DNA from: a virus | Taxonomy: Duplodnaviria > Heunggongvirae > Uroviricota > Caudoviricetes | Virus record (IMG/VR): IMGVR_UViG_2651869691_000006 | Span: 1 to 13,453 of that record | Direction: 5' to 3' (one strand) | Length of the DNA: 13,453 nucleotides | Shown: piece by piece, positions 1 through 13,453 of the stretch | How the letters are laid out: each line of letters begins with the position of its first letter | How positions within the stretch are numbered: position 1 is the stretch's first letter | Made by a program: the position numbers and the translations under genes | The notes under the pieces: generated by a model | Told to the model about the DNA's origin: nothing | Seen by the model: only the letters and a program-made list of their open reading frames with translations | Database searches by the model: none

Positions 1-650
<650 letters not shown>

Positions 651-651
<1 letters not shown>

Positions 652-1199
652 TGAGGACGATTGAAGCCATGCAGCGACAACTTCTCGGCCTGATTGGGCG
701 GGCAGTGGTGAAAAGCATCAGTGCCGCCACGAAATGTCAGACCGTGGATGTGTCCCTGATTGCCGGTGAACCCAAAGCCGGGGTTGAACATCTTGAACCC
801 TACGGTTTTACCGCAAGGGCAAACAGCGGTGCGGAAGCGGTGGTGTTGTTTCCGGATGGCGACCGTTCTCATGCGGTGGTTGTTACGGTGTCGGACCGGC
901 GCTACCGCCTGAAAGGGCTGCAGACGGGTGAGGTGGCTGTCTATGACGATCAGGGGCAGTCTGTGACGCTGACCCGGGAGGGGATCGTGGTGGACGGTGC
1001 AGGTAAAACGATCACGTTTCGCAATGCGCCCAGAGCACGTTTTGAAATGGACCTGGAAGTGACCGGACAGGTGAAAGACCTGTGCGACTCCGGCGGCACC
1101 ACCATGTCAGCGATGCGGCTTGCCTATAACGGCCATCGTCACAGAGAGAACGGTCAGGGCAGTAACACCGACAAACCGGATAAAGCGATGGAGGCATGA
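651..1199 (+). CDS. Phage baseplate assembly/spike protein V-like (Mu gp45-like)
   Basis: 182-aa ORF; ATG overlaps the upstream stop; motif ...LQTGEVAVYDDQGQSVTLTREGIVVDG... typical of gpV-type baseplate spike proteins; size and position match Mu gp45. Confidence 0.7.
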
Positions 1200-1624
1200 T
1201 GGAACTGTGGCTGACGGTGAACGGTAAACGCACCTGCGCCAGCGCACCGCTGGATCCGCTGACCCGCGCCGTGGTGATTTCCCTGTTCACCTGGCGGCGG
1301 GCGGAGCCTGATGACAATGCCGACGTCCCGATGGGATGGTGGGGGGATACCTGGCCTGCGGTACAGAATGACCGTTACGGCTCCCGGCTGTGGCTGCTTC
1401 AGCGCGGCAAACTGACCAATCAGCTGGTGCAGACGGTAAGGGGGTATATCCGCGAATGCCTGCAATGGATGATTGATGACGGTGTGGTGTCCCGTATTGA
1501 TCTGGATATCCGCCGCACCGGGATTAATGAACTGGGTAACAGTATCACTCTCTGGCGTCGTGACGGACCGGTAATGATTTCTTTTGATGATCTGTGGAGT
1601 GCGATAACGCATGGCGGACAGTGA
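1196..1624 (+). CDS. Phage baseplate protein, Mu gp46-like (GP46/W-like)
   Basis: 142-aa ORF overlapping the upstream stop by 4 nt (ATGA); size and position between V-like and J-like genes match Mu gp46. Confidence 0.65.
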   Translation: MMELWLTVNGKRTCASAPLDPLTRAVVISLFTWRRAEPDDNADVPMGWWGDTWPAVQNDRYGSRLWLLQRGKLTNQLVQTVRGYIRECLQWMIDDGVVSRIDLDIRRTGINELGNSITLWRRDGPVMISFDDLWSAITHGGQ

Positions 1625-2669
1625 ATTTCAGCGCCCGACGCTGGCAGAAAATATCAGTATGCTCCGTAACGATTTATTCGCCAGGCTGGACGTCAGCGAC
1701 ACGCTCCGGCGCATGGATGAAGACGTGCGGGCAAAGGTGTATGCGGCGGCGCTGCATACGGTTTACGGTTACATCGATTATCTGGCAATGAACATGCTGC
1801 CTGACCTGTGCGATGAGTCCTGGCTGGCGCGACATGCTGCGATGAAACGGTGTCCGCGCAAGGGGGCCACGGCTGCCAGCGGGTATATGCGCTGGGAAGG
1901 TGTCAGCGATGGCCTGAAGGTGACCGCCGGGAGTGTTATTCAGCGCGATGACCTGGTTCAGTACACGGCAACTGCCGATGCAACCAGCGCCGGTGGTGTC
2001 CTGCGCGTGCCGATCGCCTGCTCAAGTGCAGGAGCGGTCGGTAACGCTGACGACGGTACGTCATTAATCCTGGTCACGCCGGTGAATGGTCTGCCGTCTT
2101 CCGGCGTGGCAGACACTCTGACAGGTGGATTTGATACTGAAGAGCTGGAAACGTGGCGCGCCCGCGTCATTGAGCGGTATTACTGGACGCCTCAGGGCGG
2201 GGCTGACGGGGACTATGTAGTCTGGGCTAAAGAAGTGCCCGGCATTACCCGTGCATGGACATACCGCCACTGGATGGGAACGGGGACTGTCGGTGTGATG
2301 ATTGCCAGCAGTGACCTGATTAATCCCATTCCGGAAGAATCAACGGAAACGGCGGCAAGACAACACATTGAGCCACTGGCCCCGGTGGCAGGCTCTGATT
2401 TGTATGTATTCAGGCCGGTGGCGCATAAAGTGGATTTTCATATCCGCGTGACGCCGGACACACCGGAAATACGGGCTGCCATCACCGCCGAGTTGCGTTC
2501 GTTCCTGCTGCGTGATGGTTATCCGCAGGGAGAACTGAAGGTGTCGCGTATCAGTGAGGCGATTTCCGGTGCGAACGGGGAATACAGCCATCAGTTGCTT
2601 GCACCGGCGGACAATATCTCCATTGCAAAAAATGAACTGGCGGTACTGGGGACGATTTCATGGACGTGA
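1611..2669 (+). CDS. Baseplate J-like protein (Mu gp47-like; JayE-like)
   Basis: 352-aa ORF overlapping neighbours on both sides; size and order (V-like, gp46-like, J-like, gp48-like, tail fibre) match the Mu/P2 baseplate wedge. Confidence 0.75.
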
Positions 2670-3244
2670 CAAACGATGATTACATCCATCTGTTGTCGGC
2701 ACTGTTGCCCCCCGGTCCGGCGTGGTCAGCCAGCGATCCGGCGATTGCCGGTGCGGCACCGTCATTAACCCGCGTTCATCAGCGTGCGGATGCCCTGATG
2801 CGGGAGCTGGATCCGCGCACCACCACCGAACTGATAAATCGCTGGGAGCGTCTGTGCGGCCTGCCGGATGAATGTATTCCCGCAGGGACACAGACCCTTC
2901 GCCAGCGTCAGCAACGACTGGATGCGAAGGTTAACCTGGCGGGCGGCATCAATGAGGATTTTTACCTTGCACAGCTTGCTGCCCTGGGCAGACCAGACGC
3001 CACCATCACGCGATACGACAAAAGCACGTTCACCTGCTCATCGGCCTGTACTGACGCGGTGAATGCGCCGGAATGGCGGTATTACTGGCAGGTCAACATG
3101 CCAGCCGCCACCAACACCACCTGGATGACATGTGGCGATCCCTGTGATTCCGCACTGCGTATCTGGGGCGACACCGTTGTCGAGTGTGTGCTTAACAAAC
3201 TCTGCCCGTCGCATACCTACGTAATTTTTAAATATCCGGAGTAA
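2660..3244 (+). CDS. ymfQ: Phage tail protein, Mu gp48-like / P2 gpI-like (YmfQ-type, DUF2313)
   Basis: 194-aa ORF ([22 protein letters not shown]...) directly upstream of the tail-fibre gene; same length and position as YmfQ of K-12 e14. Confidence 0.65.
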
Positions 3245-3247
3245 TCC

Positions 3248-3832
3248 ATGCATCGTATAGACACGAAAACCGCGCAGAAGGATAAGTTCGGCGCGGGTAA
3301 GAACGGTTTTACCCGTGGTAACCCCCAGACCGGCACACCTGCCACCGATCTGGATGATGACTACTTTGACATGTTGCAGGAGGAACTTTGCAGTGTTGTG
3401 GAGGCATCCGGTGCCAGCCTGGAGAAGGGGCGGCATGACCAGCTGCTTACAGCGCTTCGTGCGCTGCTGTTAAGCCGCAAGAATCCGTTTGGCGATATCA
3501 AATCGGATGGCACGGTGAAAACGGCTCTCGAAAACCTTGGTTTGGGAGAAGGTGCTAACTGGGTTATGTTACCTGGAGGAATGATAATTCAGCGTGTTTA
3601 TCTTGGATTTCCTATTGGCACTAATGTAAGACATATAACTTTCCCCCGGTCGTTTACAACAACGAACTATTCCATCTCAATTAACTGGAATGATATCGGT
3701 ACTGTAACAACTGAAACACAATCACCAGCAAATGTGGCGGTTGTTCATCAAACAAAATCATTAACAGGGGCCAGCATCTGGCAGGCAGGTCCCGGGGGAT
3801 TTAATGTGGACATTATAGCGGTGGGGTATTGA
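3248..3832 (+). CDS. stfP: Side tail fibre protein (StfP-like): constant N-terminal part fused to the currently resident variable C-terminal part
   Basis: 194-aa ORF with the widespread prophage tail-fibre N-terminus [47 protein letters not shown]...; the invertase crossover site lies inside it at 3525-3550 (codons ...[11 protein letters not shown]...). Confidence 0.8.
3525..3550. repeat. Left crossover site of a Pin/Hin/Gin-family DNA invertase (26-bp imperfect palindrome)
   Basis: CTCTCGAAAACC-TT-GGTTTGGGAGAA; the left half matches the hixL half-site TTCTTGAAAACC at 10/12 positions; the right half is the reverse complement of TTCTCCCAAACC; located at the constant/variable junction of the tail-fibre gene. 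Confidence 0.7.
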
Positions 3833-3833
3833 T

Positions 3834-4262
3834 ATGTACGTATGGAGCGCTAAAGCAAATGGCTTTTTCCCCATATCGGAGAAAGAAAAATTTGAGGCAT
3901 CAGGTCTGTGGCCTGATGATGGTGTAATAGTCAGTGAGGAAGAACATAAAAAGTTATTTATGGATATTCCACCAGGAAAACAGATTGGAACACTGAATGG
4001 AAAACCAGCACTGATAGATATTCCTCAGCCGACCAAAAAGGAATTAATAGCTATTGCTGAAGTTAAAAAATCCCAATTACGGGAAAAGGCTGACAGTGAA
4101 ATATCCTGGCGTCAGGATGCTGTTGATGCTGATATCGCAACTGATGAAGAAGCTACAACTCTCACCCAATGGAAGAAATACCGTGTGCTGCTGATGCGTG
4201 TTGATACGTCAACAGCACCCGATATTGAATGGCCTACGCCTCCGGCAGTTCAGGCCAGATGA
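3834..4262 (+). CDS. tfaP: Tail fibre assembly protein (TfaP-like)
   Basis: 142-aa ORF immediately after the tail-fibre gene; C-terminus ...DTSTAPDIEWPTPP shares the motif found at the C-terminus of the convergent tfaE-like gene. Confidence 0.75.
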   Translation: MYVWSAKANGFFPISEKEKFEASGLWPDDGVIVSEEEHKKLFMDIPPGKQIGTLNGKPALIDIPQPTKKELIAIAEVKKSQLREKADSEISWRQDAVDADIATDEEATTLTQWKKYRVLLMRVDTSTAPDIEWPTPPAVQAR

Positions 4263-4827
4263 CATCCGGCGCGGTGCTGGTATCTGTTGCCGTCACCGCG
4301 TCAATGTAATCCAGCACGGCGTTAAGTCGGGTTGTTTCTGCCTGAGTCAGTTTCCGTCCGGCCTGTAATTTCAGCTGAATCAGACTAATGGAAGCCATTG
4401 CTGCATCAATCAGTGACTGGCGCTGTGCTTCTGCCGCGTCTACTGCGGCACTGTGTTGTGCCTCAGTGTCTGTCACCCATTTCTCACCATCCCATTTATC
4501 GTATGGCGTTAACGGTGAAAGCGTGACATAACCGTCTTTGATGGCACCGATATAATCCACTGTAACAGCTGCACCATTTTCGATTGAGTAAACAGTCTCA
4601 TTGCGATGGTCTTCCTCATGGCTCCATCCCTTACCTGTAAATACCGTCACTCTTCCCGGAATGTTTTCGCCCGGGTCAATACCAGTTGAACAGGCGGGCA
4701 TACTTACGCCAGTATTAATATATTCATCAGACCAGCCCGTATACTCAGATGTTTCAGCATCATAATAAAAACAACGCATATCGCCCGGCACTGTAGCCAG
4801 CCCATTTTCATCAAAAACAGGTTTCAT
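4234..4827 (-). CDS. tfaE: Tail fibre assembly protein (TfaE-like), alternative copy inside the invertible segment
   Basis: 197-aa minus-strand ORF; C-terminus ...DTSTAPDVIWPELPEA; 3' end overlaps tfaP by 29 nt on the opposite strand; start overlaps the stfE stop (TAATG). Confidence 0.75.
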   Translation of the reverse strand: MKPVFDENGLATVPGDMRCFYYDAETSEYTGWSDEYINTGVSMPACSTGIDPGENIPGRVTVFTGKGWSHEEDHRNETVYSIENGAAVTVDYIGAIKDGYVTLSPLTPYDKWDGEKWVTDTEAQHSAAVDAAEAQRQSLIDAAMASISLIQLKLQAGRKLTQAETTRLNAVLDYIDAVTATDTSTAPDVIWPELPEA

Positions 4828-5309
4828 TATTTAGCCCTCACCAGAAAGTTAAATGCAATATTTCGCGGTCTGACAGCAACAAAATTCACACCATCACCCA
4901 CAGAGTTACTGGTGAAATTAAATCGTGAAAATCCTGGCTGATTTCCGGCGATGCCATCATGAAAGTTAATTGCGTGTCCCGCACCTTCGCCTATATTCCC
5001 GGCAAACTGAGAAAAGTTTGTAGCTGCCTGCCAGCTTAATAATTCGCGACCACCATCTGCACCTCGCCCGTCATCCCAGACACGAATGAAATCACCGCGT
5101 GCGTCAGGTAATGCCAACGCCGGAAACACTTTCGCCAGCACAGGGTAATCAGTGGCAGAAAATTTCGCCCCGTTGAACTTCAAAAACACCATACTGGACC
5201 AGCTGTCGATTACAGTATTTGGCATTGCAGCGGACGCCCAGAAGAACGGAACGCCAATAGCTGGAGCACCTTCTCCCAAACTGCGATGGCTCACTGCTGA
5301 TATGTGCAA
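4827..5309 (-). CDS. stfE: Alternative tail-fibre variable C-terminal domain (StfE-like), promoterless; expressible only after inversion fuses it to the stfP constant part
   Basis: Minus-strand frame open from 5321 to the stop at 4827-4829, with no ATG near its 5' end (TTG at 5309); begins ...HISAVSHRSLGEGAPAIG..., sharing the LGEGA junction codons with stfP. Confidence 0.65.
   Translation of the reverse strand: MHISAVSHRSLGEGAPAIGVPFFWASAAMPNTVIDSWSSMVFLKFNGAKFSATDYPVLAKVFPALALPDARGDFIRVWDDGRGADGGRELLSWQAATNFSQFAGNIGEGAGHAINFHDGIAGNQPGFSRFNFTSNSVGDGVNFVAVRPRNIAFNFLVRAK
5265..5293. repeat. Right boundary repeat of the invertible segment: inner half-site only
   Basis: AGCACCTTCTCCCAAAC at 5265-5281 is the exact reverse complement of 3540-3556; beyond it (TGCGATGGCTCA) neither the core dinucleotide nor an outer half-site is recognisable. 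Confidence 0.6.
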
Positions 5310-5503
5310 TCGACGGGGAGTTCAGGATCAAGCGATATCGGACTCATCCTCAACACCACCTGATTAATTTGGAGAGCGGGAGAAGGGAGATGCTACCAGT
5401 AGATGATGACGGTTACGGTTCTGCTCCCGCGATATTCGGGGTGATTACTTACATCATTAATGATGCGAGGAACGCGGAGTTTGATGATTGTCCGGTGATG
5501 TAA

Positions 5504-6172
5504 TCATATTGGCGTTATTAGTTCGGCGCCCTGATTTTTCACATTCCCGACGGCACGCGTTACGGCGTGCCATATAAATTTATCAGCCGGTACAACACCG
5601 TCGGCTGCAATTTCCGCTGCTTCTTTCCCTCCAACATCCTGCCTCATCCATTCACGCGCGGCTTCCGGTAGCAGTACCAGTGGTCGTCTGTCGTGAATAT
5701 CAACCAGTCCTTTGTCAGCTGCAGCTGTAACTATCAGGAAACCTTCTGCTTCATCTCCACGTTCGAATGGTGTGCTGCCGATCGCCGCCATAAAAATCGG
5801 CTGACCGTCTGCCCGGTGAATAAAGTAGGGTTGTTTTTGGTCGCCTTCCTTTTTCCACTCATACCATCCATCAGCAAAGCAAATTGCGCGGCCATGCTGC
5901 CAGAGTGGTTTAAACATTCTGCTGGTGGCAGCAGTTTCAGACCGTGCATTAATGAGCGGCGGTTTATCCCACCAACCGGGGGCGTATCCCCAGATAACTG
6001 GATCAAGATGCAACTGCTCATCACGTTCGCTCAGAAGCAGAACTTTTGTTCCTGGCGCTACGTTGAATCTTCCGATGGGTTCTGGATCGTATGGAATATC
6101 GCGTTCTGATTCATCAGCGAGAAGGGCAAGATAATCTTCACGGGTCATTGACTGTGAAAAGCGTCCACACAT
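5504..6172 (-). CDS. SOS-response-associated peptidase (SRAP, YedK/HMCES family; abasic-site processing protein)
   Basis: 222-aa ORF starting MCGRFSQS (conserved Cys2 nucleophile of the SRAP/DUF159 family); GGAGG Shine-Dalgarno 5 nt upstream of the ATG. Confidence 0.8.
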   Translation of the reverse strand: MCGRFSQSMTREDYLALLADESERDIPYDPEPIGRFNVAPGTKVLLLSERDEQLHLDPVIWGYAPGWWDKPPLINARSETAATSRMFKPLWQHGRAICFADGWYEWKKEGDQKQPYFIHRADGQPIFMAAIGSTPFERGDEAEGFLIVTAAADKGLVDIHDRRPLVLLPEAAREWMRQDVGGKEAAEIAADGVVPADKFIWHAVTRAVGNVKNQGAELITPI

Positions 6173-6406
6173 AGAAACCTCCAGCCGTATGTCAGACTGA
6201 AAGTATAGGGCAGTTAGAAAAAGTGGTGCACACCGTTAAAGATTTAAAAGGAGCATGTAAGGTAAATCGGAATGATGGTTTTGTGAATTGATGAATTCCG
6301 AAAGTGAAAAAGATACTTAATCATTGTGTGCTAGCGATACGGGGGCAACATTTGACGGGGTTTTTCCCCTGTAATTCCCCATTGCTTCCCCGTTCAGAAA
6401 ACAGGC

Positions 6407-6431
6407 AAAAAAACCAGCCGTAACAGGCTGG
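6407..6431 (-). terminator. Rho-independent terminator (minus strand) within repeat copy 1
   Basis: On the minus strand: CCAGCC-tgttac-GGCTGG hairpin followed by TTTTTTT. Confidence 0.7.
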
Positions 6432-6446
6432 TTCTTCGAGGATTTT

Positions 6447-6491
6447 TGGTCGGCACGAGAGGATTTGAACCTCCGCCCCCCGACACCCCAT
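6447..6491 (-). pseudogene. tRNA-Pro 3' fragment (anticodon loop to CCA end), not a complete tRNA
   Basis: Reverse complement reads AUGGGGUGUCGGGGGGCGGAGGUUCAAAUCCUCUCGUGCCGACCA: T-arm GGAGG-UUCAAAU-CCUCU, acceptor 3' strand CGUGCCG, discriminator A, CCA. This matches from memory the 3' half of an E. coli proline tRNA (anticodon loop AUGGGGU). No 5' half is present upstream. Confidence 0.65.
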
Positions 6492-6569
6492 AGTGTCGTG
6501 CTAATATTCTGATGGCCTATATGCGTCTACAGTAAGTTGATAGCATCATTCGTCGGTCGCTTCGTAGTC

Positions 6570-7385
6570 TCACATACGGATAAAATTTTTTCTATTGATT
6601 TTGTCTCTATCAGAGCCATAAATGATGGTTGCAAAAAAACGACCTAATTCAAGATGGTGGAAGTGATTATCTTTTGCTTGAACTGTCATTGAGTCTAATA
6701 TGTTATAGATGCATTCTATGATATGAATAACTAATAAAGTGCGATAACCAGCAAGCATTTCACTTCTTTTAAGTAAATAATTTAAATCCCCTGCAGAGTT
6801 TATATGGTTTCTGTCTTCATCATAATATCCAAGCACATAGCATGGCAGTGTTTCACCATAGCTTCGGTATTGCTCGCATTTTTTATCAATTATATTTTTT
6901 TGTCTTTTTGTTAATATTTTATCGTAAATGCTCTTATCGATTTCATTATACCATTGCTTCATGGGATCATTGTCGTTGTCATTAGTAATGAAATCAATAT
7001 TACTATATCTTGATGAATTTGCAAAATTAGTTAACAACTCCATCACTCTGTAGTGAATTTCATTTAAGCCAGAGGGAGAATCAACTCTCTCAATGACTAG
7101 GTTGAATAACTTGCTTAAGTTATGACCGTAATCTCTTAATTTTTTGCGTGATGTATATTTTCCATTTTTATTATAATCATCAAGCATAAGGCAAAGTTTC
7201 ATAAGCCTTTCTAATCCTAAACTGATGCCGGATAATGCTTGAAAATACAATCCTCTACTTGCAAAATTTGCTTTCCTTAGGGAAGTGAGCCCTATGCCTA
7301 ATAATTGTCTTGAAAAGTCAACCTCATCAACAAATCTTCTGTATTTTTCATCCATAAAAACCTCAGTCAGCCAATTAATATTCAA
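6570..7385 (-). CDS. Hypothetical protein, 271 aa, AT-rich horizontally acquired cargo gene; function unknown (candidate defence/abortive-infection-like)
   Basis: Long minus-strand ORF in a region that appears strongly AT-rich by inspection, in contrast to flanking DNA; Lys/Asn/Ile/Tyr-rich protein; contains KLRDYGHNLSKL (R-x3-H); followed by the terminator in repeat copy 1. Confidence 0.7.
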   Translation of the reverse strand: MNINWLTEVFMDEKYRRFVDEVDFSRQLLGIGLTSLRKANFASRGLYFQALSGISLGLERLMKLCLMLDDYNKNGKYTSRKKLRDYGHNLSKLFNLVIERVDSPSGLNEIHYRVMELLTNFANSSRYSNIDFITNDNDNDPMKQWYNEIDKSIYDKILTKRQKNIIDKKCEQYRSYGETLPCYVLGYYDEDRNHINSAGDLNYLLKRSEMLAGYRTLLVIHIIECIYNILDSMTVQAKDNHFHHLELGRFFATIIYGSDRDKINRKNFIRM

Positions 7386-7577
7386 GAATGATTTCTATAA
7401 AGAACTAATCTAGTTAAATCATCTGATGTAATTAGTATTACAATACCATCAGACGACATTGAAGCAGTATTGTGCCTTATCTACCCTATGTACGTCCATT
7501 GATAAAAATCTGCGCTTTTCGCAGTGGGGTCAATCGTAAGCTAATTTCCCCATTGCTTCCCCGTTCAGAAAACAGGC

Positions 7578-7603
7578 AAAAAAAACCAGCCGTAACAGGC
7601 TGG
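7578..7603 (-). terminator. Rho-independent terminator (minus strand) within repeat copy 2
   Basis: Same CCAGCC/GGCTGG hairpin followed by an 8-T run on the minus strand, positioned downstream of the 322-aa gene. Confidence 0.7.
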
Positions 7604-7618
7604 TTCTTCGAGGATTTT

Positions 7619-7662
7619 TGGTCAGCACGAGAGGATTTGAACCTCCGCCCCCGACACCCCAT
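7619..7662 (-). pseudogene. tRNA-Pro 3' fragment (copy 2), acceptor stem mutated (CGUGCUG)
   Basis: Reverse complement reads AUGGGGUGUCGGGGGCGGAGGUUCAAAUCCUCUCGUGCUGACCA. Confidence 0.6.
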
Positions 7663-7858
7663 AGCGGTGATCTACCTTCTCATCAAGGGTAACCATGTGC
7701 CAGAAGCAGCCCTTGCGCACATTGGATGGGTATCAAATAATGAAGTAGGTCAACTTTATTAAATAAAATTGTGTTGGTTCAGATGATCGAATGGGAATGA
7801 ATAGTTTATTACTTTTGGTGACCGCAAGCGCGATCACCTTCGATTTGGTGGCAATTAC

Positions 7859-8827
7859 CTAGAATGATGCACAATCTTTAAGCTCTTTTTCTAGTTGTTC
7901 AACCAAGTCACAGCATTTTTTGATAACATCTTTAACTGACTCTGAATCTAACTTATGAAAATTACCATTTTTTGTTTTACCTGCTCGATGAACTAAGTCA
8001 TGCCTAATTAACACGCTTTTATAAACTTCTGTGAAAACAGGGAATTTAATACCAAAGGTATCTCGATACATGCCACTTACTTTTGGCAGATTATGATAAA
8101 GAACACTCTTCATAGACTCTATCGCTTGAGACTCTATTTGTTCATGCCTTATAAATAATTCAGAAAGTAAGAATTTTTCTGTATTGTAATCTTTGAAGGT
8201 TTCAACAAAATTTCTCAAATTAGTTTGGCTACCATGAATTAGGGAAATAAATCTGTCACATAAATATGTTTCCAAGGAAGTTATTGTATTGGCATATAGC
8301 ATATACGACATTTGTATTTGTAAAGTGCTATCAATTTTTAACTGAGCATCATTTAGTTTTATGGCGTTCTGCATACTATTTTGGAATGTCATATAGACAT
8401 CTCGTTCAGATAGCGTTCGATCATCAGAGTACTGCATATCAATAACATCTAGAATGCGCTGTTCAATTAATGAAGGTCTATTCAACTGTAATATATCTAT
8501 AGTCGCATGTCCTCGCTCAGTTAAACCTTCTAAATATCCATTTTTATTTTGTTTTATATGTTCTGAAAAACTTTCATTTAAAGGATTTAGAAGTAATGGT
8601 TTGCCATTTTCATCGAGAGGAAACTGATCTTTTTTAATCATGCTACATGCCTTACAAGCGATGAGCAGGTTGTCTGTAGCATCTTGGAAGTCAGTATACT
8701 TTGATTTTGGGAAAAAACGATCAACATCCGCCATCAATGGTTCATAAAGTTTAGTGCCACAGTAAGCACATTGATGCTTAAACTTCTCCCATAGTTCAAG
8801 TTTAAACGTTTTATAATTCTTATTCAT
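7859..8827 (-). CDS. Hypothetical protein, 322 aa, AT-rich cargo gene: N-terminal HNH-like zinc-ribbon domain with non-canonical catalytic positions plus C-terminal domain with an R-x4-H motif (candidate nuclease/defence protein)
   Basis: N-terminus has C20-x2-C23 ... D36-R37-FFPKS ... N53-LLIA-C58-x2-C61, the spacing of an HNH motif but with Arg where the DH histidine normally sits; C-terminus contains IRHDLVHRAG (R275-x4-H280); region appears AT-rich by inspection. Confidence 0.7.
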   Translation of the reverse strand: MNKNYKTFKLELWEKFKHQCAYCGTKLYEPLMADVDRFFPKSKYTDFQDATDNLLIACKACSMIKKDQFPLDENGKPLLLNPLNESFSEHIKQNKNGYLEGLTERGHATIDILQLNRPSLIEQRILDVIDMQYSDDRTLSERDVYMTFQNSMQNAIKLNDAQLKIDSTLQIQMSYMLYANTITSLETYLCDRFISLIHGSQTNLRNFVETFKDYNTEKFLLSELFIRHEQIESQAIESMKSVLYHNLPKVSGMYRDTFGIKFPVFTEVYKSVLIRHDLVHRAGKTKNGNFHKLDSESVKDVIKKCCDLVEQLEKELKDCASF

Positions 8828-9271
8828 TGAATAGTTCCTTTATATTCTTGACTTGATTGTTTGTTTGCCAATTTAAGCCAAAGACACACGACTTTAATTG
8901 GGCTTGAATCATAGTTATATGTAATCTATTAAGCAAACACTTTTCATTAATAGCATGAGATAACGCTCAATTCTTTATTTTCCGGGAGTGTGTAACTTCA
9001 TATCCACCTCTCACTCACAGCGTACGTTATTGGCGAAAAATTTAGTTAAGCCATTGATAGTTTGTGAAAACACGCATGATTTAAAATCCCTTTGCCGTGA
9101 AGGGGCTGATAGGTACAGGCACTTGTTTTTGCCCTCTAAAACGGTTATCAAAACCAAAAAACATACATTGATAATCAATAGGTTAGGGGAAAGATAAAAG
9201 CCAGTTGATTTACAATAAAATTATAGGATTATTTTTATTTATCATGCGGTTGTATATGAACCATCTAACTA

Positions 9272-9436
9272 CTGCTGCGCCATATGGGCTGGACTGAAGC
9301 CGCAGACCTGATTGTTAAAGGTATGGAAGGCGCAATCAACGCCAAGACCGTAACCTATGACTTCGAGCGTCTGATGGAAGGCGCTAATCTGCTGAAATGT
9401 TCAGAGTTTGGTGACGCGATCATCAAGAACATGTAA
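9272..9436 (+). pseudogene. icdC: icd 3'-terminal fragment (icdC): displaced original 3' end of isocitrate dehydrogenase, marking prophage attR
   Basis: Translates in frame to [54 protein letters not shown], the C-terminus of Icd; no upstream icd sequence (in-frame TAA at 9266-9268). Confidence 0.85.
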
Positions 9437-9460
9437 TCTCTACATGTGTTAAATATTGAA

Positions 9461-9488
9461 ACGGGCGTATAACACGCCCGTTGTTTTT
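9461..9488 (+). terminator. Rho-independent terminator of icd
   Basis: ACGGGCGT-ataac-ACGCCCGT hairpin followed by TGTTTTT. Confidence 0.75.
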
Positions 9489-9697
9489 ATAAATATGTTA
9501 ACCGTTATAAAATAACGTATCAAAAGTCAAGTGAACACATTTCAAATATCAATTTGATCGTATTGGTCTGGTGATTATTTATGGGGAGCAATAAAAAGAC
9601 AGTATTAATCATCCATAGGGATGGTCTCTGCACTTTTATTTCCATTATGCTAATGCCTTACTGAATTATGAAGCATTTCTTAAGCTCCCAACTTTAG

Positions 9698-10322: not shown

Positions 10323-11054
10323 TTAGGGGGCATGAAAGATGACTTTATAACCTTGCTCACCCCAGTGTTGTAAAAGTTCGTTTTGCCTTCTCGTTGGTGC
10401 CATGCCTGTCCAGACAATCAATGTTTGCGTTGGGAACAGTTCCGGGCGCGGCGATTCAATGGGATCAGCAAGAACAGAAATGTGCCATCCTGACAATGAT
10501 AAACGCCATGCTTCCAGCCACAATCGTGCTCTCTCTTCAACATTCCACGCCATCAGAATGGCCTCTTTACCGGGCTTACGGCGCATTTCGAAAAGTGAGG
10601 CCGCTGCGTATTCAATTAATGTGCCGTCAAACATACTGCTCATAATGCGGGAGGTGTTGTGATCAAGCACGAGACGCTGGCGAACAGGAAGGTAAACATG
10701 ATTAATCAATTGATCTACTGGGTACTCTCGACCCAGTGAAATAATTCGCGCGCGTAGTTTGGCTGGATTAGCCATACGAAGAATTGACATCATCTCTTCT
10801 TGCAGGCGGCTCCAGTCATCTTGCGTATCCTGGCTGGTAGTTTCCAGTAATGCTTTCACTTTGCCTACAGGAACGCCATTACTTATCCAACGCTTGATCT
10901 CTTCGATGCGTTGTATGTCTTCTTCATCAAAGAGTCGGTGTCCGCCTTCACTGCGCTGTGGTTTTAACAAACCGTAGCGGCGTTGCCAGGCCCGGAGAGT
11001 GACAGGATTAATCCCGCAACGTTCAGCAACATCACCAATGCTGTAATAAGCCAC
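10323..11054 (-). CDS. bluR: MerR-family transcriptional repressor BluR (YcgE)
   Basis: 243-aa ORF; N-terminal MerR helix-turn-helix ([42 protein letters not shown]); synteny with bluF and ycgZ. Confidence 0.85.
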
Positions 11055-11103
11055 AATTCCTCCTTGCGGTCATAAATCTCCGTCGCCTCTACACGACCCA
11101 ATA

Positions 11104-11141
11104 ATACTTTGTACAATATACGCTGAAATTGTACAAAGTAT
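11104..11141. promoter_or_regulatory. Perfect 14-bp inverted repeat with 10-bp spacer between bluF and bluR (candidate operator or RNA hairpin)
   Basis: ATACTTTGTACAAT-atacgctgaa-ATTGTACAAAGTAT; each arm contains the self-complementary octamer TTGTACAA; lies 50-87 bp upstream of the bluR start. Confidence 0.35.
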
Positions 11142-11258
11142 AAATAAGATTTCAGCTAAATTGGATGAAACATTATTTTTAATGTGGATTAAATTAAAAC
11201 ATAACGCATTCATTTTCGCGATGATTTCCAGAAATCATGCGAAATAATGTGCTGAAAA

Positions 11259-12470
11259 TTATTTTTTCTCCGGCCACGCAACTGAAGGGATACCATTCAA
11301 TTTAGCTTTGGAAAACAGATCTCCCTGAAACATCTCAATTCCTGCAGATTCAAGCCACATCCACTCTTCTGGTGTTGCCACGCCCATAGCAGAGACTTGA
11401 ATTTCAAGTGATGTACAGCATTTCATGATCGCCTGAATAATTGCCTGCCGTGGTCCGCTTTTATGAACATTGGTAATCAATTCCTGACTGATTTTAATTC
11501 TGTCAGGCTGGAAGCGTGACAGGAGTAACAAACCAGCAAAACCTGCGCCAAAATGATCAATTGCTACACTGATACCGGCAGCCTTTAGCGATTTAACCGC
11601 TTCGGCAAACTCATCAAACCGAGATATGACTTCACTTTCAGTAAATTCAACGATGATTTGTTCAGGCACCAGAGCATTGGCCTTTATTTCATCAAGTAAA
11701 AAAGAGACTGCGTCAGGCTCGTTAACCAGGGTCATAGGTAATAGATTGATTGAAATCATTTTATCACCGAGCTTAAGTGCGTGTGCCATCGCAAATGCAA
11801 GCGCCTTACTTTTGAGATCCGCTGTGTAGATTTCCTCGTCTTTACGCTGCCCAACCGCTATAGCTGACGGGCTGTCTTCATTTTTTTGCACAATGGCTTC
11901 AAAAGCGATTATCCGCCGCGATAAAGGGTCGACAATAGGATGAAAGGCAAAGTGGTCGTTTATATTTGATGAAAGGGTACAAGAATCAAGTTCTTTATCA
12001 GATCCGTCAGCGATAAAAAGCCAGGAGTCTTCAGCAGGAATCTCGAAATAGGTTGATTGTTCAGTTGCAAGGACAAAAGTACGAAAAAATTGTAGCGCTC
12101 TGTCATCATAAGTTAGCTGAAATTTTGATGTGCCTTTGTCGAATACGGCCTGTAAAACGTCATCTCGCTCGTGCAGGCGTAAATCAAATAATTCCATTCC
12201 TGCTTTGCCAAAACGGCGAGCAGGCGCGTAATCGCACAACAGTTCAACAATATTATAGTGCCGTGGATCCTGGCATATGGCCCGATATATCATTTGAACC
12301 TGTTCTTCCGGACCTTCCAGAAGCTGGAAAAAATGAGAACCATTAAACAGTAAGATCCCTGTTACGTCAGACCGCATGTTCCTGCGATTTGCTATCGAAA
12401 CCATTTCTTCGATTTTTTTGACAGGTTCGTCGTCACGTATATGGCTACGATAAATAAGGGTGGTAAGCAT
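11259..12470 (-). CDS. bluF: Blue-light sensor BluF (YcgF), BLUF-EAL protein
   Basis: Start chosen at the internal ATG giving MLTTLIYRSHIRDDEP... (403 aa) rather than the TTG at 12548 used by the ORF track; N-terminal BLUF domain, C-terminal EAL-like domain; divergent from ycgZ. Confidence 0.85.
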   Translation of the reverse strand: MLTTLIYRSHIRDDEPVKKIEEMVSIANRRNMRSDVTGILLFNGSHFFQLLEGPEEQVQMIYRAICQDPRHYNIVELLCDYAPARRFGKAGMELFDLRLHERDDVLQAVFDKGTSKFQLTYDDRALQFFRTFVLATEQSTYFEIPAEDSWLFIADGSDKELDSCTLSSNINDHFAFHPIVDPLSRRIIAFEAIVQKNEDSPSAIAVGQRKDEEIYTADLKSKALAFAMAHALKLGDKMISINLLPMTLVNEPDAVSFLLDEIKANALVPEQIIVEFTESEVISRFDEFAEAVKSLKAAGISVAIDHFGAGFAGLLLLSRFQPDRIKISQELITNVHKSGPRQAIIQAIMKCCTSLEIQVSAMGVATPEEWMWLESAGIEMFQGDLFSKAKLNGIPSVAWPEKK

Positions 12471-13335: not shown

Positions 13336-13406
13336 AATTTCATAAGTAAGATGAGAGGGTAATGACTCCAACTTATTGATAGTGTTTTATGTTCAGATAA
13401 TGCCCG

Positions 13407-13453
13407 ATGACCTTGTCATGCAGCTCCACCGATTTTGAGAACGACAGTGACTT
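13407..13453 (+). CDS. Possible 5' end of the next operon gene (position expected for ariR/ymgB), truncated by window end
   Basis: Only frame open to the window end after the stop at 13398-13400; ATG at 13407 (MTLSCSSTDFENDSD...); weak Shine-Dalgarno; not verified. Confidence 0.2.
   Translation, partial: MTLSCSSTDFENDSD

Follow-up and report, generated by a model that had tools for sequence, protein, structure and literature searches.

A YedK-type SRAP gene near the right end of an e14-like prophage in icd, a long-diverged paralog of chromosomal yedK

Introduction

In YedK and HMCES, Met1 is removed, and the amine and thiol groups of Cys2 then react with the aldehyde form of an abasic site on single-stranded DNA to give a thiazolidine. 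Cys2 is the nucleophile, Asn75, Glu105, and His160 have catalytic roles, and Arg77, Arg85, and Arg162 contact DNA. The closest described protein is Escherichia coli YedK (PDB 2ICU, 6KBS, 6NUA, and 8D2M), the prototype of the bacterial SRAP proteins that crosslink to abasic sites, the gene of which lies between yedF and yedL in K-12. Human HMCES shares the SRAP fold and the Cys2 chemistry; however, it is a distant eukaryotic ortholog with a C-terminal PIP-box tail and bears on the mechanism only. The physiology of bacterial SRAP proteins is poorly defined.

The closest described prophage is e14 of strain K-12. It is integrated in icd with a displaced icd' fragment and has an invertible tail-fiber segment, a retained pin gene, and an HNH nuclease gene before icd'; its right end is arranged as pinE-mcrA-icdC. 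K-12 e14 is not known to contain an SRAP, dinI, or humD gene.

Aravind et al. (2013) defined the SRAP family through its genomic neighborhood with umuDC, imuAB-dnaE2, and dinB, noted its occurrence in temperate phages and prophages, and proposed that the proteins act as damage sensors (PMC3765255). A phage genome paper of 2021 proposed that phage SRAP protects viral replication (PMC8424206). The prophage-borne yedK-like SRAP gene described below belongs to a rare kind that is already annotated in public records, and SRAP genes beside umuDC and in temperate phages have been described since 2013. Our literature search, the coverage of which was incomplete, returned no paper with functional tests of a phage-borne SRAP, and this is a weak negative.

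Identity and Integrity of the SRAP Gene

The window, i.e., the whole stretch of 13,453 nucleotides that was analyzed, contains an intact reading frame that starts with ATG and encodes a protein with the N-terminus MCGRF (Table 1). The protein matched the Pfam SRAP family PF02586 along the complete profile (positions 1–214 of 214; 173.3 bits, cut-off 27.1; E = 6.8e-51) and the NCBIfam model of the YedK-type subfamily, NF007413, with 463.9 bits against a cut-off of 349. In the PDB search, E. coli YedK was matched over residues 1–222 with E-values of ~1e-138 to ~7e-138, and human HMCES was among the matches at E ~5e-18. The family assigned in PHROGs was phrog_1599 (E = 2.8e-88), and the gene is annotated in the RefSeq record of strain AH01 as "SOS response-associated peptidase." The match to PADLOC defense-system models was negative (0 families). 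The expectation of a full-length SRAP carrying Cys2 is thus borne out by the Pfam, NCBIfam, and PDB matches, with gene boundaries exactly as predicted, and the gene can be assigned by its sequence to the YedK type, a known kind of protein.

The prophage protein is of the same length as E. coli YedK and identical to it at 194 of 222 residues (87.4%). All seven of the positions aligned in YedK numbering, namely Cys2, Asn75, Arg77, Arg85, Glu105, His160, and Arg162, have the same residue as in K-12 YedK, so that both the catalytic and the DNA-binding residues are shared. Since every required residue is present and the identity to a protein crystallized in crosslinked form is 87%, crosslinking to abasic sites by the prophage protein is very likely. 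The exact protein sequence was found in 296 blocks of the index of a public assembly collection.

Table 1. Coordinates of the SRAP gene and of surrounding features in the window.
Feature	Position	Strand	Basis
Tail-fiber segment	3532–5281		
LexA-like site CACTGAATGGAAAACCAGCA	3991–4010	+	
Tail-fiber ORF	4234–4827	-	
Tail-fiber ORF	4827–5309	-	
Deletion junction: left half of Pin crossover site (TTCTCCCAAAC) joined to humD	5257–5281	.	AH01 comparison
humD' remnant, C-terminal 73 codons of HumD/UmuD'-like S24 peptidase, 222 bp	5282–5503	+	NCBIfam HumD
SRAP coding sequence, 222 aa, intact	5504–6172	-	translation, Pfam, PDB, NCBIfam
Shine-Dalgarno GGAGG, 5 nt ahead of ATG	6178–6182	-	sequence; invariant in three prophage lineages
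Candidate -10 hexamer TATACT	6202–6207	-	found by hand; conserved in three prophage lineages
Candidate -35 TGCACC	6225–6230	-	
Direct repeat, first copy	6372–6491		
Terminator-like hairpin and T-run, directly after tRNA-Pro fragment	6408–6437	-	sequence scan
3' 45 nt of tRNA-Pro gene, from the region of the anticodon loop to CCA; first copy	6447–6491	-	alignment to annotated tRNA-Pro
271-aa ORF	6570–7385	-	
Direct repeat, second copy	7542–7664		
PtuB-like HNH protein gene, 322 aa	7859–8827	-	
icd' (displaced 3' end of isocitrate dehydrogenase), right end of e14-like prophage	9284–9436	+	translation, AH01 annotation
IS1 terminus	13358–13453		

The Carrier Prophage

According to translations and Pfam matches, the left 5.3 kb of the window contain Mu-type baseplate genes, a gene of the YmfQ family, and a cassette of tail-fiber and tail-fiber-assembly genes in two orientations. 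The right end of the prophage is marked by icd', beyond which ycgX, bluR, bluF, ycgZ, and ymgA follow in this order. The displaced icd fragment, the Mu-type baseplate, and the invertible tail-fiber genes are those of an e14-like element; the pin invertase gene, which would be expected beside the invertible segment and is retained in K-12 e14, has been deleted from the window. On the basis of this gene content, the carrier is identified as an e14-like, Mu-type-tailed prophage integrated in icd. Positions 78–9487 were 99.7% identical to AH01, apart from one inversion and one deletion. The original prediction described the SRAP gene as prophage-adjacent: the link to a prophage holds, whereas the adjacency does not, as the gene lies inside the prophage, with the icd' right end a further 3.1 kb away.

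In the product of another gene of the right end, the N-terminal HNH domain resembles PtuB, the Septu/retron effector, most closely (PADLOC E = 1e-23), and the C-terminal domain matched phrog_29321. The gene occupies the position of mcrA in K-12 e14. No PtuA partner is present, and the gene is probably a stand-alone nuclease-type defense gene, as judged from these matches.

Comparison With Chromosomal yedK

The prophage gene and yedK differ in both locus and nucleotide sequence. The yedE-yedF-yedK-yedL order, including the immediate flanks yedF and yedL, was not found in the window, where the SRAP gene is surrounded by phage tail genes, icd', and ycgX/bluR/bluF. A sensitive blastn search of 5426 complete E. 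coli genomes with the prophage coding sequence detected native yedK in 5378 of them at 60–80% nucleotide identity, typically 77–78%; 5379 records fell into this identity class, and only 35 records reached at least 80%. The prophage type is therefore present in <1% of complete genomes, against ~99% for yedK. In K-12 MG1655, native yedK was the only place matched by blastn.

The two genes coexist in AH01, the nearest complete genome, in which native yedK lies beside yedF, ~840 kb from the prophage copy; the coexistence is thus documented in close relatives of the source genome. The AH01 genes share 191 of 222 amino acids and 513 of 669 nucleotides (76.7%). Between the prophage gene and K-12 yedK, dN was 0.082 and dS was saturated, while dN/dS was low within the phage-borne lineage, at 0.078 against the prophage copy of strain AR_0128 and 0.069 against that of Escherichia phage PHB10.

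These data bear on two simple explanations of the gene. The first, that it is the native yedK locus with a prophage inserted alongside, could appeal to the 87% protein identity to YedK. However, the yedF/yedL flank is wholly missing, the gene has phage tail genes on one side and the icd' end of the prophage on the other, its DNA is only 77–78% identical to native yedK, and AH01 contains both genes. We therefore rejected this explanation, which has practically no probability left, on synteny and coexistence. The second explanation, a recent duplication or translocation of host yedK that was captured by the prophage, would fit the equal length and the shared subfamily model. It is very improbable and was likewise rejected: comparison with E. 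coli yedK showed saturation of the synonymous sites, the two copies within one genome differ as given above, and the nearest relatives of the gene are other prophage copies (93% nucleotide identity in AR_0128; protein clusters of 90–95% identity, one of them in Enterobacter). Because dS against yedK is saturated and dN/dS among prophage copies is low, the prophage SRAP is interpreted as an old paralog (xenolog) of yedK under purifying selection. The original prediction of a mobile-element copy distinct from native yedK thus withstood the comparison with the chromosomal gene, which points to a paralog and not to a translocated yedK.

In addition, native yedK is cut off after ~142 codons in many E. 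coli genomes, and the blastn match covered at least 80% of the gene in 4258 of the 5378 genomes with a yedK match. In E. coli O25:H4 CU568-3 (locus L008, positions 4001–4426), the sequence behind the break in yedK contains a helix-turn-helix pseudogene, then tnpA of IS200/IS605, and ybcM-ybcL-emrE. Through this truncation, a functional chromosomal YedK is missing in many E. coli lineages.

Recurrence in Prophages and Phages

The idea that SRAP is carried as cargo by other prophages was confirmed by a survey. The same SRAP lineage was found in four settings, namely tRNA-Pro, yecD, icd, and an Enterobacter P2-like prophage, each time as the final gene ahead of the attachment site. In AR_0128 (L002), an e14-like prophage at tRNA-Pro contains an SRAP gene of 93% nucleotide identity, with similarity that continues across the upstream region and reaches into the intact tRNA. 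A related prophage beside yecD in strain 1943 (L007) has a copy with 88% nucleotide identity. Terminal SRAP genes are present in the icd prophages of AH01 (L001) and others, and the P2-like prophage of Enterobacter hormaechei (L011) encodes a terminal SRAP with a 90%-identical protein. The reading frame was intact in every lineage examined.

In the phage collection, SRAP was detected in 44 of 50,697 records. The copy of PHB10 lies beside the integrase together with umuDC, and those of Erwinia phages vB_EhrS_49/59 occur with a umuD' gene; further carriers are Pseudomonas phage F116, Bacillus SPbeta (YoqW), and a Gifsy-2 fragment with an unannotated truncated copy. As a group, these SRAP genes (phrog_1599) are carried by temperate phages, like the one studied here, and often lie near the integrase or attachment site together with umuD/umuC-type genes. 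The identity of the prophage protein was 85.6% to the PHB10 SRAP and only 27% to YoqW. Unlike in these phages, the carrier in the window is an e14-like prophage with a Mu-type tail, and the partner translesion genes have been deleted. These results extend the known association between SRAP and translesion genes of phages by further examples from enterobacteria and imply no new mechanism.

The Decayed Neighborhood of the SRAP Gene

The gene had been placed directly after the tail-fiber segment and convergent with it. The two do not abut, because the humD' remnant lies between them. The convergence holds only loosely, with respect to the late operon on the plus strand; the nearest tail-fiber ORFs, in the present orientation of the segment, are on the same strand as SRAP. 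The convergent neighbor is humD', the stop codon of which abuts that of SRAP tail to tail. The last 36 residues of humD' correspond to positions 94–129 of the 129 positions in the NCBIfam HumD model (E = 1.7e-13), and its full frame has no start codon.

Comparison with AH01 revealed how this arrangement differs from a more complete one. The order in AH01 is invertible tail-fiber segment, pin recombinase, dinI, frameshifted humD, and SRAP; in the window, 1.5 kb of this sequence (locus positions 10480–11981; cf. L001 10455–11982) is gone, and with it pin and dinI, the two LexA boxes between dinI and humD, and the 5' part of humD. Its left breakpoint falls within the Pin crossover site and its right breakpoint within humD, with TTCTCCCAAAC followed directly by TGCGATGG; the counterpart in AH01 is TTCTCCCAAACCAACGTTTATGAAAA. 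The invertible segment has opposite orientations in the window and in AH01. The exact stf–humD' junction was found in 0 of 5,426 complete E. coli genomes, and it recurred without a single base difference in five out of six further assemblies with the identical SRAP (L013, L014, L015, L017, and L018; draft or metagenome assemblies). This exact recurrence indicates a circulating variant and not an assembly artifact. Since the deletion removed pin, the tail-fiber segment is now locked in one orientation. The position of the 1.5-kb deletion suggests an aberrant Pin-mediated event; no obvious pseudo-site was found on the humD side. In AH01, the frameshift in humD (L001 11667–12204) lies in a short tandem repeat coding for SQPASQPASQPAS.

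The decay of the neighbors raises another explanation, in which SRAP would be a leftover without function, hitch-hiking as part of a decaying SOS cargo module (dinI-humD-SRAP). It could be a surviving hitch-hiker, given that humD is truncated in the window and frameshifted in AH01, that the umuC-like gene of AR_0128 is a fragment, and that pin and dinI are gone from the window. However, dN/dS of 0.07–0.08 argues against neutrality, the SRAP frame stayed intact in all lineages examined, the catalytic residues, the -10 element, and the ribosome-binding site are conserved, and the identical protein is widespread. A non-functional remnant is thus improbable, and the gene is better regarded as one maintained by selection.

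Expression Signals

Upstream of SRAP lies a candidate promoter. The candidate -10 hexamer and the Shine-Dalgarno sequence are kept even in one lineage in which the remaining upstream sequence is unrelated. The candidate -35 is weak, with a 3/6 match to the consensus, and a sigma-70 consensus scan of positions 6173–6407 on the minus strand called no promoter, TATACT included. The terminator-like hairpin would insulate SRAP from upstream transcription.

A LexA box upstream of SRAP, a possibility also considered in the original prediction, was found by neither a consensus search nor a position-weight-matrix scan. The matrix was derived from 20 known LexA boxes of E. coli; on this scale, the best site in positions 6150–6600 scored 8.7 bits, compared with 13.1–26.0 bits for the reference boxes, and this site is on the far side of the terminator. 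With the same matrix, the two LexA boxes between dinI and humD in AH01 scored 19.8 and 19.7 bits and the umuD box of PHB10 scored 26.0 bits. The matrix scan found no LexA box ahead of SRAP in K-12 yedK, PHB10, Erwinia phage 59, or strain 1943 either, a likeness between the prophage gene and yedK. The prophage SRAP is hence "SOS-associated" by neighborhood only. Its own -10 element and ribosome-binding site, the upstream terminator, and the missing LexA operator suggest that its expression in a lysogen would be independent of SOS. The top LexA-like site in the window scored 14.0 bits, just over the weakest reference box, and lies inside a tail-fiber-assembly gene; it is probably a chance match.

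An alternative role would be that of a damage sensor or switch for prophage induction, or of a defense or counter-defense factor that handles abasic sites arising from glycosylase-type immunity. Such a role would suit the location of SRAP in a prophage-end region with a PtuB-like HNH nuclease at the mcrA position of e14, and a sensor function is a published hypothesis on phage SRAPs (Aravind et al., 2013; PMC3765255). However, SRAP has no LexA box, is far from the immunity region, and matched no PADLOC model; moreover, a 2024 study found that deletion of chromosomal yedK left Brig1 glycosylase immunity against T4 unchanged (PMC11078745). We consider this alternative to have a low probability.

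Proposed Function of the Prophage SRAP

The explanation that we favor, with a probability of roughly 0.8, is that the gene encodes a functional YedK-type SRAP, that the e14-like prophage in icd carries it as an accessory gene (moron) at its right end, and that it is a long-diverged paralog of yedK, neither the native locus nor a recent duplicate. Removal of Met1 would expose the N-terminal Cys2, which, aided by Asn75, Glu105, and His160, would attack the aldehyde formed by ring opening at an abasic site of single-stranded DNA. The resulting thiazolidine DNA–protein crosslink would protect the lesion against AP endonucleases and against breakage of the strand. The gene is likely a transcription unit of its own that runs counter to the late tail operon and uses a small promoter, the -10 element of which is conserved, together with a strong ribosome-binding site. 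The ancestral neighbor was a LexA-controlled dinI/humD translesion module, which decayed in AH01 and was deleted here while SRAP was kept intact. For the prophage, the benefit might be that abasic sites in single strands of host or phage DNA are better tolerated, which originally would have gone along with the action of the DinI/HumD module.

A more specific version would be a selected lysogenic-conversion or phage-protection gene, retained in the final position ahead of the attachment site in several Enterobacteriaceae myovirus prophage families, which would shield abasic sites of single-stranded phage or host DNA (produced, e.g., during SOS or by glycosylase-type anti-phage defenses), would originally have acted with phage HumD/UmuC, and would have a phenotype distinct from that of YedK. 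This version is unlikely, though not negligibly so; if it were true, a measurable fitness or counter-defense phenotype apart from that of chromosomal YedK would be expected. The roles in the original prediction, protection of replicating element DNA and modulation of SOS, are speculation, and similar ideas have been published for other phages, that of protection already in PMC8424206 and that of damage sensing in PMC3765255.

Whatever its benefit may be, E. coli can bear a second, long-diverged, selectively maintained YedK on e14-like prophages, which bears on the interpretation of yedK knock-outs in non-K-12 strains. The prophage copy, being under purifying selection, is also a handy test case for SRAP physiology in bacteria.

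tRNA-Pro Fragments and the Region Beyond icd'

The region between SRAP and the PtuB-like gene contains two direct repeats of a ~120-nt unit, about 97–99% identical, on either side of the 271-aa ORF. Each copy is made up of 45 nt from the 3' end of tRNA-Pro, its terminator hairpin, and ~35 nt of additional sequence. The ARAGORN tRNA scan and Rfam detected no complete tRNA or RNA family in positions 5200–9600, and the tRNA-Pro pieces were recognized solely through alignment to an annotated tRNA-Pro. In AR_0128, the ~120-nt repeat sequence is the junction of the related prophage with an intact tRNA-Pro; because of this shared sequence, the icd prophage is taken to carry attachment-site relics of a relative that integrates in tRNA-Pro, and the first fragment is assigned by alignment as the attachment-site core of such a prophage. 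The layout resembles one left by the insertion or accretion of a small module between the tRNA-Pro relics.

The 271-aa ORF between the repeats (261 aa from the ATG annotated in AH01) is AT-rich cargo. Searches of Pfam, NCBIfam, PADLOC, and PHROGs returned nothing for it. Conserved copies occur in AH01 and the L014–L018 assemblies.

From icd' onward, the window was only 96.7% identical to AH01, so that the host background differs from that strain. Approximately 0.8 kb of AH01 between icd' and ymgL, including iraM and ymgK, is missing from the window. In L014, L015, L016, and L018 (positions 1–4900), a lambdoid prophage with integrase, Xis, RecT, Gam, and Kil genes lies directly past the icd' fragment, an arrangement indicative of prophages in tandem at the attachment site in icd. 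At the end of the window, the IS1 terminus is 98% identical to the IS1A end in L002 and is inserted after ymgA, before ariR.
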